Shown in pieces: positions 34,961 to 40,449 of a DNA stretch of 64,000 nucleotides; position 1 is the stretch's first letter; every line of letters begins with the position of its first letter. The translations under genes and the position numbers were made by a program. Under the pieces are notes generated by a model. The model saw only the letters and a program-made list of their open reading frames with translations. It searched no databases and was not told where the DNA came from. Origin of the DNA: Opitutaceae bacterium (lineage in GTDB: Bacteria > Verrucomicrobiota > Verrucomicrobiia > Opitutales > Opitutaceae); NCBI GenBank assembly GCA_050289505.1, contig JBNKFW010000017.1, positions 13,783-77,782 of the forward strand, given 5' to 3'.

Positions 34961-35283
34961 GATATTTGAGTTATATTGTCTTGTAACTTGTTGAGTGGAA
35001 ACAACTTGCGAGGATGTGGCTCGCACTGAAGAACGTATTGCTGCAAGTTTCAACTAAAATGCTGTGAAATCTTGGATTAATTGTACTAGGACTATTGCAA
35101 ATGAGTAGGGGTAAGTATTTATTGGCGTTTAGGTTGATTTCCCGTCTTTAATACAAGCCTTGTTTTCTGTCATTCCCTCGTTGTGAACTCCATTTTAATC
35201 CCGATTTGTTTGGCGTGGTCCCATTGCGGACCTCGCTTGGCTTTTGTTGATGAGCGGTGCTTAGGCTTTGGAAGGGAAAATCG

Positions 35284-37404
35284 ATGAAAGGGATTCGGTA
35301 CGAGTTGTTTCGCTTGCTGGTCGCGGCGGCGGCTGGATTCGTAGTGGCACTCGTCGTTTGGAGGTTTTGGCCGGAGGTTGCTTTGGCGTTGGCAGTCGTT
35401 CCGATGGTGGTGGCATTGCTTGTGGGCTTTGCTCTCCGGAGGGAGGCTTCGGAAGCAAACGAGAATACGGGAGGGGGATCGGGATCCTACATCAGCCCCA
35501 ATCAATGTCAGCCCGCTTTGTCAGCGGCTGGAGTAGGGGCTTGGATATGGGATTTCCAGTCAAACGAGCTCCATTGCACGCAAGATGTATTTAAGATTTT
35601 GGGACGGGATGACCCGCAACCAAAGTTGACCGCGGAGGTTTTCGAGAAGGGGGTGCATCTTGACGACCGGGAGGTTTTTAAGCGAGCAGTGGAGGCTGTA
35701 AAAGCGGGGACGCGAAGGAGTCCGCTCGACTGCCGTTTCGTCAAGCCCGGCGGAGGCGTCGTCTGGGTCGAATTGACGATGTGTCTTGTTGTGGGAGACG
35801 CGGGACAAATGCAGATCGCGGGAGCTATGACGGATGTGACCGAGAGGAAACACGTCGAAGCTCAGCTGGACCGCGGGGCTGCCTCGCTGGAAGCCATTCT
35901 GGAAAGCACCGACAATATCGTATTTTCCATCGACTCCGCCTATCGACTAACCGTCTTGAATTCGAGGTTTACGGCCAACGTGCGCTTTTCCTACGGCAAG
36001 ACGCTGCATCTCGGCGACGACATTCTAGACGCCGCACCTCGGGAGGTCGCCGCCCTTTGGAAGCCACGCTACCAGAGAGTTCTTGGAGGAGATTCTCTCC
36101 GTGTTGAGGAAGTATTCGAGGTGAAGGGTATTCGATACTATTTTGACGTATCGATGAATCCGATACGCGAGCATGGTCAGGTGACAGGTGTTGCCGTATA
36201 CAGCCGCAATATCACTCGACAAAAAATTCGCGAAAAGGAGTGGCTGGAGGCAAAGGAGCGGGCTGAGGAGAGCGATCGCTTGAAGTCTGCTTTTCTGGCG
36301 AACATGTCGCATGAAATTCGTACCCCTCTCAACGCGGTGATGGGCTTCGCCCAACTTTTGAAAACCGGTGATGGGACGAAAGAAGACAGGGAGAAATTTA
36401 TAGATATCATTCTCTCCAACGGAAACCATTTGCTGAAGATTTTGGGAGATATTATCGATCTCGCCCAAATCGAATCCAATCAGTTGCGAGTCGAGCCCAT
36501 TACCTTCGATCTCGGCTTGATGCTTGCTGAAACCTATTCCGTGTTCTTCGATCGAATACGCTCGCAGTCGGATGGCCATATAGAACTTGTAGTTGATAGT
36601 TCATTACAGGATTCGAACTACGTTTTGTGCGATGAGACTCGCTTGAAGCAGGTCATATACAATCTTGTTTCAAATTCGATCAAGTTTACCAGCGAGGGAA
36701 GCATCCGCGTGGGTTATGAGCGAAAAGAGGGAGGAATGATCGAATTTTTCGTGGCGGATACTGGAAGTGGAATCCCGGAGGAATCGAGGGAGCATGTGTT
36801 CAAGCGCTTCCGTCAAGGAAAGCATACGGTAGGTCGCCGCAATGATGGAGTGGGCTTGGGTTTGTCCATTTGCCAAGGGCTCGTGGCCTTGCTGGGGGGC
36901 GAAATTTGGGTGGAAGACAATTTCCCCTGTGGTTCGATATTCAAATTTACCATTCGGGATCATTCCAACGAAGTGAGCGTTTCGGCCATTCGTCCTCAAG
37001 AGAGCGAAGGAACGAAACCCTTGCTCCAGCCCACTAAATTGATGGCGGGCTGCCAGGTTTTGGTAGCGGAAGACGACGACATGAACTTCAAGGTGATCGA
37101 CGAGTTCCTAAGGAACGAGAGTCTCGTCGCGCTGCGCGCCGTGAACGGGCAAGAGGCGATTCACGAGGTGGAACGAAATCCGGAAATCCAACTTGTGGTC
37201 ATGGATTTGAGCATGCCGGTCCTCAATGGGCTCGAAGCGACGAAACGGATTAAGGAAATGAGACCGGAGTTGACGGTAATCGCTCACACGGCCCATGCCA
37301 TGCAACGGGAGTTGGATCTGGCGCTGGCGGCAGGTTGCTCGGATTGTCTGGTGAAACCGATCAGCATGGAGCGCTTCAAAGCGCTTTTGGCTCGTTACGT
37401 TTAA
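35284..37404 (+). CDS. Hybrid PAS-domain sensor histidine kinase/response regulator
   Basis: TM helices, two PAS/PAC domains, FLANMSHEIRTPLN, GVGLGLSI and C-terminal receiver VVMDLSMPVLNG. Confidence 0.95.
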   Translation: MKGIRYELFRLLVAAAAGFVVALVVWRFWPEVALALAVVPMVVALLVGFALRREASEANENTGGGSGSYISPNQCQPALSAAGVGAWIWDFQSNELHCTQDVFKILGRDDPQPKLTAEVFEKGVHLDDREVFKRAVEAVKAGTRRSPLDCRFVKPGGGVVWVELTMCLVVGDAGQMQIAGAMTDVTERKHVEAQLDRGAASLEAILESTDNIVFSIDSAYRLTVLNSRFTANVRFSYGKTLHLGDDILDAAPREVAALWKPRYQRVLGGDSLRVEEVFEVKGIRYYFDVSMNPIREHGQVTGVAVYSRNITRQKIREKEWLEAKERAEESDRLKSAFLANMSHEIRTPLNAVMGFAQLLKTGDGTKEDREKFIDIILSNGNHLLKILGDIIDLAQIESNQLRVEPITFDLGLMLAETYSVFFDRIRSQSDGHIELVVDSSLQDSNYVLCDETRLKQVIYNLVSNSIKFTSEGSIRVGYERKEGGMIEFFVADTGSGIPEESREHVFKRFRQGKHTVGRRNDGVGLGLSICQGLVALLGGEIWVEDNFPCGSIFKFTIRDHSNEVSVSAIRPQESEGTKPLLQPTKLMAGCQVLVAEDDDMNFKVIDEFLRNESLVALRAVNGQEAIHEVERNPEIQLVVMDLSMPVLNGLEATKRIKEMRPELTVIAHTAHAMQRELDLALAAGCSDCLVKPISMERFKALLARYV

Positions 37405-37471
37405 ACGGCTTTACCGAGCCCGAGGGCTTCGCGCTTGACGTTTAAGGGTTCCTTCCTACTTTGATTCTTTC

Positions 37472-37537
37472 ATGTCACTCGTATCAAACTACGCGTTTTG
37501 GTTTTATTACTTCTGGAATTTCCAGGGGCGAGATTGA
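37472..37537 (+). CDS. Aromatic-rich attenuator leader peptide MSLVSNYAFWFYYFWNFQGRD
   Basis: 21-codon ORF with 3 Tyr, 4 Phe and 2 Trp, directly upstream of a terminator and the DAHP synthase. Below the ORF-track length cutoff. Confidence 0.85.
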   Translation: MSLVSNYAFWFYYFWNFQGRD

Positions 37538-37568
37538 CGTGTCTATATAGAACCAAGCATATCCGCAG

Positions 37569-37605
37569 AAAGCCCTGGAATTCCTAGTGAATCCCAGGGC
37601 TTTTT
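37569..37605 (+). terminator. Attenuator terminator
   Basis: AAAGCCCTGG (37569-37578) and CCAGGGCTTT (37594-37603) plus a T-tract. The competing antiterminator TTCCAGGG (37520-37527) pairs with CCCTGGAA (37573-37580). Confidence 0.85.
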
Positions 37606-37651
37606 GCATGTCCCGAACTTCCATCCCACCTCCCTTAAACGATTTTTAAAC

Positions 37652-38731
37652 ATGAATGCTATCATCCGACCCAGACCAGTAATTGAATCCGACTTGCCAG
37701 CGGAAGCGGCAGGCGACTGCACGGCTACCGTTATCCCGGCGCCATCTAAAATCAGAGGAGACATTCCTCTTAGCCCAACGGCTTTGGCAACGGTTGCGAA
37801 AGCTCGTAGCGAGATAGCGGATATCTTGAGCGGGCGGGATGAGGATCGCATGCTGGTGGTATGCGGTCCGTGCTCCATCGACGATGTCAATTCCGCGCTT
37901 GTTTACGCCGAACGCTTGCGTCGTCTCGCCTCGGAAGTGGAAGACCGAGTTTTGATTGTGATGCGGACCTACTTCGAGAAACCCAGAAGCGTAGTCGGAT
38001 GGAAGGGGATGCTTTACGATCCTCTCTCCAGCAGCGAAAATAGCCCGACAGCGGGGATCGCCATTGCCCGGAGATTAGTGGCTCGGATTACCGACTGCGG
38101 ACTCGCCTGCGCGACTGAATTCCTCAACCCGCTGCTAGCTCTCTACTTGGAGGATGCGATTGCGTACGGCTCCATTGGATCGCGTACCGTCGAGAGCCAG
38201 GTACATCGCGAACTCGCTAGTCGTCTAAATATGCCGATGGGAATGAAAAACGGGATGGATGGAAGTTTGGCGTCTTCGGTAAATGCCGTTCAGTCTGCAA
38301 AGGCAGCGCATTTGTTCTTCGGTCAAAACCTGCATGGCAATGCCTGTATGGTGCAGACGGAAGGCAATACAAACGCCCATTTGATCCTACGTGGAGGTAC
38401 GAGCGGTCCGAATTTCGATGCGCAGAGTATCGATAAAGCGGTGGAAGGGGGACGCCAGTTAGGACTGCAGCGTCCGGTGGTCGTTGATTGTTCTCATGGA
38501 AACTCCCAGAAGGATCATCGTAGGCAATCTGTTGTCGTCGAGGAGGTTTTGAGGCAGGTTCAGTCGGGGCAAAAAGGTATCGCGGGAATCATGCTCGAGA
38601 GTCACTTGATGGAAGGTAGACAGGACGTAGATCCCGGAGAAATGCGGAAATTCGGGCAATCTATTACGGATGCTTGTATTGGTTGGAAGGATACCGAATA
38701 CCTCATTCGGAAGTTGGCGGCCGAGTTCTAA
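37652..38731 (+). CDS. 3-deoxy-7-phosphoheptulonate (DAHP) synthase, class I-alpha (AroF/G/H family)
   Basis: GPCSIDD, MRTYFEKPRS, ESQVHRELAS, DCSHGNS, MLESHL and SITDACIGW. Confidence 0.95.
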   Translation: MNAIIRPRPVIESDLPAEAAGDCTATVIPAPSKIRGDIPLSPTALATVAKARSEIADILSGRDEDRMLVVCGPCSIDDVNSALVYAERLRRLASEVEDRVLIVMRTYFEKPRSVVGWKGMLYDPLSSSENSPTAGIAIARRLVARITDCGLACATEFLNPLLALYLEDAIAYGSIGSRTVESQVHRELASRLNMPMGMKNGMDGSLASSVNAVQSAKAAHLFFGQNLHGNACMVQTEGNTNAHLILRGGTSGPNFDAQSIDKAVEGGRQLGLQRPVVVDCSHGNSQKDHRRQSVVVEEVLRQVQSGQKGIAGIMLESHLMEGRQDVDPGEMRKFGQSITDACIGWKDTEYLIRKLAAEF

Positions 38732-38898
38732 AATACCCTATAAGCGCCCTCCACGAGGTACTTGGGGAAGAAGAACCAAGGGGGCGCGTATGGGAGAAGA
38801 CTCAGGGGCGGCGGAAAGTTCCTCAGGTAAAAACGGGAGAATCCATCAAGTTCGATCAGGGCGGTACAGAAGGGCTCGCGGAACCCGTTTCCGTGCCC

Positions 38899-40449
38899 AT
38901 GCAACTCAGAATCCCACAACTCAAATTTTCCAATTTTAGACTAGCTCGACTGTGTTTAGTCTTCCTGATTTCCGCTATTAGCGCCTCTGTTTACGCGGAC
39001 GAAGTCGTACTGAGCTGGAGCGACAACTCCGATAATGAAGACGGCTTCTGTATAGAGCGAGCAATCGGCGACGGCGCTTTCGAGGAACTTGCCCAGGTCG
39101 GAGTAGATGTTGAGACTTACACGGACACGACGGCGCAAGCAGGCGTAGACTATCGTTACCGAGTTAATGCCTTCAATGCCTTTGGCTACTCTGGCTACAC
39201 GAACGTTGCGAGCCACTATATTAACGTAGCGCCAAACCTTACCGATATTGCGGACGTTTCCGTGGAAGAGAACGAGATGACTGCGGAGATCGTATTCAGC
39301 GTGAGCGATTTCGAAACAGCGGGAAGCGAATTGAGCGTATCGATCTCTAGTAGCAATTCGGAGTTGCTGGACGCTTCGGCTGTGACGGTCGTGAGCAATG
39401 GCGCCGACAGATCTTTTTCGCTGATTCCGTCGCTTAATGTCGCCGGAGAAAGCACAATCACGGTAACCGTATCGGATGGGGAAGATTCGAGCAGCAAGGA
39501 TTTCCTATTCGCGGTTAATGCCTTCGTCTATCCGACGCTTCAGCTGTCTTGGGAATCGATAGGATCACAACCTAGAGCGGGCGAGCCGTTCCTCGTGCAA
39601 ACAAGCGTGAGCGATACGACTTTCGTTTCCTCGGTCAGTTATTGGCTAGCGGGGGAACTCGTGGAAACGGTAGCTCAGGCTCCCTACGAGGCGTCTATCT
39701 CGATTTCGGAAACGGGAACGTTCACCCTTTCAGCGGTCGCCGACATTACGGGTCGGGATCAAGACGTGACGGCCGATGAACTGGTCGCAGTTTCGGACGC
39801 TCCGGCGGCCAGTGAGTTTGTTGACAATTTGGCGACCTTGTCCGTCGACGAATCCTCGGCAACGGGTTCCGCGAGCTACGACCTAGCGACGGATAGTTTC
39901 TTGCTCCAGGACGAAAGCGGCCTGATTTCCGGCACCTCCGATACGCATCGCTACTATTACTTGCGAGCTCAGGGCAATGTGTCGATCCAAGCGCAGATCG
40001 CTTCTCTTGACGCGGCATCAAACGGTTCCGTAGCGGGATTGATGATCCGCTCCGCCCTCTATGGCAAAGCGCCTCAAGCATCGTTGCTCGTGAGCGGAGG
40101 CTCGCAGCTGAGCGCGAGGACGCGTGAAGCGAAGGGCGATGGCACCGCCGAGCGCCAGCTTTCAGGGGCTGTAGCAGCGAATCCTTGGCTGCGTATCGAA
40201 AAGGTAGGCTCTAGCTTGCGCTACTACTATAAGGAAACCGCTGGAGCTAACTGGACGCTCGTAGGCGAGGATACGATCGATTTGGGCAATGAGGTATTCT
40301 TCGGTTTCGCCTTAGCAGGCGGCCCAGCCGAGGGACTCGCTTCGGCGAGCTTCACTCGAGCCCAATTGGAGGGAGATATCCTCACGCTAGGGGACGGAGC
40401 GGTAAAGCCCAGCATCCCGAGCGGTCTTCTCATCAGTAGCGTAGATTGA
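38899..40449 (+). CDS. Secreted multidomain protein (fibronectin III, Ig-like domains, ConA/DUF1349-like domain)
   Basis: Signal peptide. LSWSDNSDNEDGFCIER...YRYRVNAFN (FN3). AGLMIR and PWLRIEKVG in the C-terminal domain. Confidence 0.8.
   Translation: MQLRIPQLKFSNFRLARLCLVFLISAISASVYADEVVLSWSDNSDNEDGFCIERAIGDGAFEELAQVGVDVETYTDTTAQAGVDYRYRVNAFNAFGYSGYTNVASHYINVAPNLTDIADVSVEENEMTAEIVFSVSDFETAGSELSVSISSSNSELLDASAVTVVSNGADRSFSLIPSLNVAGESTITVTVSDGEDSSSKDFLFAVNAFVYPTLQLSWESIGSQPRAGEPFLVQTSVSDTTFVSSVSYWLAGELVETVAQAPYEASISISETGTFTLSAVADITGRDQDVTADELVAVSDAPAASEFVDNLATLSVDESSATGSASYDLATDSFLLQDESGLISGTSDTHRYYYLRAQGNVSIQAQIASLDAASNGSVAGLMIRSALYGKAPQASLLVSGGSQLSARTREAKGDGTAERQLSGAVAANPWLRIEKVGSSLRYYYKETAGANWTLVGEDTIDLGNEVFFGFALAGGPAEGLASASFTRAQLEGDILTLGDGAVKPSIPSGLLISSVD

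Follow-up and report, generated by a model that had tools for sequence, protein, structure and literature searches.

The region upstream of a DAHP synthase gene in the window (here, the whole 64,000-nt stretch of DNA that was analysed) raises the question of whether a short reading frame full of aromatic codons, followed by a GC-rich hairpin, governs the expression of the first enzyme of the shikimate pathway. Our analysis indicates that a ribosome-mediated (leader-peptide) transcription attenuator very probably controls this gene, one of two class I-alpha DAHP synthase genes in the genome. This reading is based on the elements found in the sequence, on how they are conserved and how they fold, and on the fact that they accompany one paralog exclusively; from these we infer that actual termination and a response to starvation would take place.

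The aromatic leader and its putative promoter

To verify the elements of the proposed attenuator, we re-read positions 37100-38000, and all the coordinates that the original prediction had given for the leader and the hairpin were borne out (Table 1). The leader ORF is closed by a TGA codon at 37535-37537. A recount of codons 7-17 gave the 3 Tyr, 4 Phe and 2 Trp codons that had been claimed, which makes nine aromatic codons in the ORF, and seven of them form an unbroken run at codons 9-15. Within this short, translatable ORF, the codons for the end products of the pathway that it would regulate are clustered.

Table 1. Features of the leader locus, with positions in the window.
Feature	Position	Strand	Description
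Putative sigma-70-type promoter	37435-37462	+	-35 TTGACG 37435-37440, 16-nt spacer, -10 TACTTT 37457-37462; from sequence
Leader ORF	37472-37537	+	21 codons + stop, product MSLVSNYAFWFYYFWNFQGRD*; read from sequence
Regulatory codon run	37496-37516	+	F9 W10 F11 Y12 Y13 F14 W15 (TTT TGG TTT TAT TAC TTC TGG)
Outer helix, genus-specific	37497-37557	+	UUUGGUUUUAU (37497-37507, codons 9-12) with AUAGAACCAAG (37547-37557); encloses the 1:2 hairpin; in the MFE fold
Region 1, CUUCUGGA	37510-37517	+	Forms the 5' side of the 1:2 (anti-antiterminator) hairpin and spans the codons for Phe14 and Trp15; in the MFE fold
Region 2, UUCCAGGGGCG	37520-37530	+	Alternative partners: region 1, or the terminator 5' arm (antiterminator)
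Intrinsic terminator	37569-37605	+	Region 3 37569-37583, loop 37584-37588, region 4 37589-37603, T-run 37601-37605
DAHP synthase gene (proposed regulated gene), class I-alpha (AroG/F/H-type)	37652-38731	+	359 aa; Pfam PF00793 DAHP_synth_1, 4e-72

Among the 40,235 short ORFs of the 5.27-Mb genome (ATG-started, 8-40 codons, six frames), the leader alone shows seven aromatic residues out of seven. Two other aromatic-rich short ORFs, with six of seven, were discarded as lying inside or antisense to coding sequence, and a covariance-model search of the genome detected no second copy of the aromatic leader. Since the run of seven is unique genome-wide and the element is conserved in 26 genomes, a chance origin is excluded.

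The leader is preceded by a putative promoter, with 9 nt between the end of its -10 box and the ATG. A similar arrangement, with a TTGACC/TTTACA box, a spacer of 16-18 nt and a TAnnnT box that stops 7-11 nt short of the ATG, recurs in about 19 of the 26 loci; a stricter consensus promoter scan returned no promoter upstream of the leader. The position of the -10 box so near to the ATG implies a leaderless or near-leaderless leader mRNA without a Shine-Dalgarno sequence, and the transcription start site would thus be expected near the leader ATG, with a very short 5' UTR or none.

Alternative pairings and ribosome position

The GC-rich terminator claimed at this locus is present both in the sequence and in the ViennaRNA fold. 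Region 3 (AAAGCCCUGGAAUUC) pairs with region 4 (GAAUCCCAGGGCUUU) at 14 of 15 positions around a 5-nt loop, and the stem runs into UUUUU; a simple consensus terminator scan did not pick up this hairpin, presumably owing to its length or to the A.C mismatch inside it. An intrinsic terminator stands between the leader ORF and the structural gene in all 26 sequences, with energies of -19 to -27 kcal/mol. The minimum free energy (MFE) of segment 37440-37660 is -64 kcal/mol (z = -4.9), and none of 200 shuffled sequences folded as well. The MFE structure holds the terminator, a hairpin formed by CUUCUGGA and UCCAGGGG (37510-37528) and an outer helix that joins codons 9-12 to AUAGAACCAAG. This outer helix is restricted to the genus of the window; across 12 sequences 84% of its cells are paired, the changes being mostly one-sided (G-U/A-U), and in the other genera codons 2-6 pair with the stop-codon region in its place.

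The 1:2 / 2:3 / 3:4 geometry that had been proposed for this locus is also supported, since its pairings are preserved in 26/26 sequences and the constrained folds are consistent with it. The segment TTCCAGGG (37520-37527) and CCCTGGAA (37573-37580), the latter within the hairpin's 5' arm, are perfectly complementary over 8 bp, as originally described. The second proposed pairing, between CTGGAA (37513-37518) and region 2, is likewise possible in the sequence, the realistic 1:2 helix being formed by region 1 and UCCAGGGG (37521-37528) around the loop AUU; seven of its pairs are kept in 24-26 of the 26 sequences according to RNAalifold. The 2:3 duplex reaches -12 to -23 kcal/mol in every one of the 26 sequences, and shuffled versions of region 2 give only -7 to -12 kcal/mol.

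According to the attenuator reading, transcription would start at the promoter whose -10 box lies about 9 nt before the ATG, and the leader ORF would be translated from a leaderless or nearly leaderless transcript. With charged Phe-, Trp- and Tyr-tRNAs the ribosome would reach the stop codon at 37535 and cover region 2 (UUCCAGGGG), and with no ribosome on the RNA region 2 would be held by CUUCUGGA in the 1:2 hairpin. In both situations the 15-bp terminator (37569-37603 plus the U-run) would form and the transcript would end near 37605. A ribosome stalled at codons 9-13 (F-W-F-Y-Y) would cover region 1 and leave region 2 free to pair with the terminator 5' arm (CCCUGGAA and its flanks) once this arm is made, and the resulting antiterminator would block the terminator, allowing RNA polymerase to read into the DAHP synthase gene.

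The effect of ribosome position was modelled by masking the RNA up to 15 nt past the first base of the A-site codon and folding the transcript as it stands before region 4. With the A site on codons 9-12, all of the 12 sequences formed an antiterminator of -15 to -29 kcal/mol, in which region 2 and the terminator 5' arm shared 6-12 pairs. These pairs numbered 5-7 with the A site on codon 13 and fell to 0-5 on codons 14-15, where they are largely or wholly lost, and a ribosome at the stop codon covers region 2 itself. In these computations the antiterminator excludes the terminator and is freed by a stall at codons 9-13 only. The masked folds thus place the productive stall window at W10-F11-Y12-Y13 (plus F9); these four codons fall exactly where a stall is predicted to free the antiterminator, and the stall window predicted for the genome of the window includes all three aromatic amino acids. 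The 1:2 hairpin, which would sequester region 2, is conserved and was recovered by RNAalifold, but at equilibrium the partial transcript folded without a ribosome already shows the 2:3 pairing in 7-8 of the 12 sequences. The off state would therefore have to depend on the order or kinetics of co-transcriptional folding. A dependence of the off state on folding order during transcription is likewise found in other attenuators.

The original prediction also held that one leader senses the charging of all three aromatic tRNAs. One part of this proposal is sustained by the invariance of F-W-F..F-W in the 26 sequences, but the Tyr positions become F, H, T or C in other genera, and in the tested precedent, the aroR leader of Corynebacterium glutamicum (Phe-Tyr-Phe), the response was to Phe and not to Tyr according to the summary given in PMC11802643. 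The amino acids that count are most likely Phe and Trp, and Tyr is a probable addition; judging from the codons, sensing of Phe, Trp and Tyr together is plausible in the genome of the window.

The choice among synonymous codons was also analysed. TTT is found at codons 9 and 11 in 25 of the 26 sequences, and the genome uses TTT for only 30% of its Phe codons. Codon 12 is UAU in 17 of the 18 cases in which it encodes Tyr, the genome preferring UUC and UAC 70:30, and codons 13 and 14 are the genome-preferred UAC and UUC. This pattern fits the stall window, and both decoding speed and pairing (in the outer helix of the window's genus) are possible causes.

Conservation of the element and its linkage to one paralog

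A covariance model built from 12 copies was searched in 401 sampled genomes of the family, and after inspection we retained 27 real copies, 26 intact and one decayed, distributed in four genera of one Opitutaceae-like family. Two weak family-level matches (L179 and L180) were rejected as false positives. The same search gave no real match in 400 other genomes sampled from the order, where a lone extra hit (L181) turned out to be an unrelated terminator, and the plasmid collection contained no match to the element. Scanning genome contigs for the pattern TTYTGGTTYTWYTWYTTYTGG returned, among the matches listed, almost exclusively chance occurrences in AT-rich genomes; two of the matches listed were true extra loci, in the congeneric Verrucomicrobiae bacterium DG1235 and Opitutaceae bacterium EAC85.

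A MAFFT alignment of the 26 intact copies underlies the conservation counts. The peptides follow the pattern x(6-9)-[YF]-F-W-F-[YFH]-[YFTC]-F-W-[NDK]..., in which F-W-F-x-x-F-W is invariant and the two middle positions are mostly Y-Y, with F, H, T or C as the other residues. This invariance is tighter than a run of cognate codons requires, and it speaks for a nascent-peptide arrest sensor like TnaC, SecM or ErmCL, in which translation would be stalled by FWFYYFW itself, perhaps together with a free aromatic ligand inside the exit tunnel, so that the stall and not tRNA charging would set the fold. We consider such a sensor very improbable, since the C-terminal part of the peptide is unconserved, the same RNA motif being read as FQGRD, NPGA or FPEAV, and fixed synonymous sites indicate a constraint on the RNA or on the codons. 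Moreover, H, T and C occur at positions 4-5 of the run, and the codons match the end products of the pathway, as they do in leaders that sense charging. Attenuation through tRNA charging remains our preferred reading.

The RNA motif in question is CCAGRGGC of region 2, which is conserved although it is read in two frames: as F-Q-G-R-D in six species of the window's genus and as P-G/E-A elsewhere, after a 1-nt indel. The stop codon shifts together with this frame (GAUUGA vs GUGA; 37520-37537 in the window, alignment columns 52-72). That the same RNA is read in two frames indicates directly that CCAGRGGC is conserved as RNA and not as peptide.

The outer 10 bp of the terminator, AAAGCCCUGG/CCAGGGCUUU, are identical in 26/26 sequences. 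The inner terminator stem and the pair below the A-tract covary, with A-U in 13 and G-C in 9 sequences in one case and U-A in 11 and C-G in 10 in the other. Without any guide, RNAalifold recovered from the 26 sequences exactly two helices, CUUCUGG/CCAGRGG (1:2) and the terminator. For the 2:3 pairing, the base beside CCAG in region 2 and the base beside CUGG in region 3 form U-A in 5 sequences and C-G in about 15 and are mismatched in 6, and the covariation control is weak, 81 of 500 shuffles reaching the observed score. The weak covariation statistics of the 1:2 and 2:3 helices are explained by their near-invariance, and the support for them comes from conservation and energetics. The invariance itself is explained by a chain of complementarity, as UGG (Trp15), CCA (region 2), UGG (region 3) and CCA (region 4) pair serially and the Trp codon, which cannot be changed, freezes the whole chain. 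The conserved aromatic mini-ORFs with covarying stems that one would seek in relatives were found in part: the mini-ORFs occur in 26 genomes and the inner terminator stem covaries, but the core helices are invariant.

Terminator and antiterminator alternatives are also typical of protein- or tRNA-binding RNA switches (T-box-, TRAP- or PyrR-like), in which case the ORF would be incidental and a protein or tRNA might in principle bind the invariant AAAGCCCUGG. We searched segment 36900-38200 against Rfam with cmscan at E up to 10 and obtained four chance-level matches, far below the gathering scores, and no leader or riboswitch family. Specifically, neither Phe_leader (RF01859) nor Trp_leader (RF00513) gave a covariance-model match in this segment, nor did the T-box model (RF00230), which describes a specifier loop and a T-box sequence, within the same E limit. 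Besides this lack of any Rfam family, the T-box included, all 26 sequences keep the start codon, the frame and the stop in spite of indels, and the invariance is already explained by the UGG/CCA/UGG/CCA chain, which makes a switch of this type extremely improbable.

The genome encodes two I-alpha DAHP synthases, and the second one, at G000:C1:73901-74887, is 46% identical to that of the window. Among 41 relatives, 11/11 orthologues of the window's gene (53-88% identity) carry a FWF[YF][YF]FW short ORF 180-270 nt upstream, and none of the 19 loci of the other paralog has a FWF..FW leader. A DAHP synthase gene follows directly behind each of the 26 intact copies of the element. In a maximum-likelihood tree built from 47 DAHP synthases, the 20 leaderless ones grouped in a 100/100 clade, and 26/26 leader-bearing genes, together with the one that has the decayed leader, fell on the other side of that branch. 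The tree and the linkage indicate that the leader has travelled with one paralog through more than 1 substitution per site of protein divergence.

The gene 5' of the leader in the window (35257-37404) encodes a hybrid histidine kinase/response regulator. The linkage to DAHP synthase holds in the 18 loci without this kinase gene upstream, and the possibility that the hairpin is a mere terminator of the kinase gene was rejected, as leader and hairpin stay with DAHP synthase in these loci. The conserved ORF, which has its own terminator and promoter-like site, could also be read as a free-standing gene for a small hydrophobic peptide, the DAHP synthase gene having its own promoter downstream of 37605. 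This reading is highly unlikely: the ORF is found only immediately upstream of one DAHP synthase paralog, in 26/26 intact copies and with any upstream neighbour, and its 3' end is complementary to the terminator arm in every copy. In addition, we found no promoter-like site in the roughly 46 nt between the T-run and the DAHP synthase ATG, and in genome G184 a leader with an internal stop adjoins the most divergent DAHP synthase (39% identity).

Some loci show further particularities. The decayed leader of G184 (L178; G184:C12:213952-214090, reverse strand) reads ..AYFW-S-E-F-L-stop, has a weakened terminator arm, AAAGCCUUGG, and precedes the DAHP synthase that diverges most within its clade, the one mentioned above; element and gene may be in course of loss. 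Another locus (L174, in G086:C1, reverse strand) has an intact leader and a DAHP synthase on a very long branch of 2.0 substitutions per site, for which tblastn showed 35% identity over residues 90-359, and this gene may be frameshifted or degenerating. In the window, a 591-codon ORF (38674-40449, forward strand) with bacterial Ig-like domains (Big_7, Big_9) starts immediately behind the DAHP synthase gene or overlaps its end; synteny of this ORF is kept within the genus.

Relation to known attenuators and to other leaders of the genome

The closest precedent is the aroR-aroF locus of C. glutamicum (Neshat et al. 2014, as summarised in PMC11802643), where leader attenuation of a DAHP synthase gene was shown experimentally. 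As far as that summary describes it, aroR-aroF shares with our locus a short aromatic-codon leader ORF and a terminator before the DAHP synthase gene, with stalling raising read-through; target enzyme and mechanism class are thus the same. The summary also allows the differences to be listed: C. glutamicum belongs to another phylum, and the resemblance between the two leaders is functional; aroR has three aromatic codons and no Trp, whereas the window's leader has seven in a row, including two Trp; and in the genome of the window only one of two paralogs would be controlled. Attenuators have also been predicted upstream of aroF in Acholeplasma (the uORFC-13-1 motif, PMC8632094) and before aroF-tyrA in Vibrio (PMC1173090). 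They resemble our element in having a predicted uORF and a terminator upstream of a DAHP synthase gene, but they are Phe-type (U-rich) or uncharacterised, belong to other phyla, are predictions only and were not recovered by similarity.

The pheL-pheA, pheM-pheST and trpL-trpEDCBA leaders of E. coli display the same 1:2 / 2:3 / 3:4 arrangement, with the regulatory codons in or just before region 1, the stop codon before region 2/3 and an intrinsic terminator. Each of them, however, responds to one amino acid and acts on a tRNA synthetase or on a terminal branch of the pathway, not on the common first step, and the window's leader differs also in that it probably lacks a Shine-Dalgarno sequence or a 5' UTR. 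Multivalent leaders are known from the ilvGMEDA (Ile/Leu/Val) and thr (Thr/Ile) operons of enterobacteria. There, as proposed here, several end products of a branched pathway are read in one leader and any shortage can derepress, but the amino acids and the pathway are other ones and there is no homology.

In the same class of bacteria, four loci of another family (L186, L187, L190 and L193; genus g181, family f43) carry Phe-rich short ORFs about 190-225 nt upstream of DAHP synthase (..GFFFSF.., ..SFFLFIF.., ..YFFLFNF.. and ..VFFSF..) that are dissimilar to the window's leader and may represent a separate Phe-type leader family. The design of a DAHP synthase attenuator seems to have arisen repeatedly. 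The window's leader constitutes a distinct, uncatalogued family (no Rfam match) confined to four genera. With somewhat more doubt than belief, we propose that it is a compact multivalent sensor, with slow wobble codons (UUU, UUU, UAU) at the productive positions and fast codons (UAC, UUC) where stalls would be counter-productive. The leader mRNA would be leaderless, and through it any shortage of an aromatic aminoacyl-tRNA would turn on a DAHP synthase paralog dedicated to 'starvation'; the element would be an uncatalogued family, one of several DAHP synthase attenuators that evolved independently in Verrucomicrobiota and other phyla.

In E. coli, DAHP synthase is controlled by the TyrR/TrpR repressors and by isoenzyme feedback. 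The locus described here suggests that tRNA charging can tune the entry step of the shikimate pathway, either replacing such controls or acting beside them. We found no paper that reports leader-peptide attenuation for Verrucomicrobiota, in which phylum, to our knowledge, almost no gene regulation has been studied by experiment, and our data add a well-supported case for it. No concept is changed by this case, since the mechanism and its use on DAHP synthase were already known (established in C. glutamicum, predicted in Acholeplasma and Vibrio); what is new is the lineage and the sequence family, and what was known already is the kind of switch. The element also annotates 26 small ORFs that were previously unannotated. 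Seven sensor codons and four short complementary segments, linked in a chain via a Trp codon, make up a compact design that could serve tests of multivalent sensing or be reused as an aromatic amino-acid biosensor.

The use of leaders elsewhere in the genome was surveyed by scanning for short ORFs that contain amino-acid runs and have a terminator behind them. In front of the three genes for chorismate-binding enzymes (trpE candidates) of the genome we found no Trp leader, so leader control is not general for its aromatic genes. Most of the other candidates of the scan were out-of-frame noise. Another candidate, MNHIKTTTTTIMMTKANTLRAGGMRRY, with a Thr/Ile/Met run (G000:C9:111565-111712, reverse-complement strand), has a TTGACA-like box before it and a strong terminator after it; it was rejected as a biosynthetic leader, the ORFs behind it having no Pfam match or obvious role in the threonine pathway. 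The scan uncovered a second convincing leader, the Val/Leu-rich MNPSTIKPFSLLNLVLVNVVVVVVVGWTASARG (G000:C4:82577-82738, forward strand), which has a terminator of -30 kcal/mol, lies 28-60 nt upstream of a gene for a TPP enzyme (acetolactate-synthase-like) and is probably a branched-chain amino-acid attenuator. Its position before this gene indicates that leader-peptide attenuation appears to be used elsewhere in the genome.
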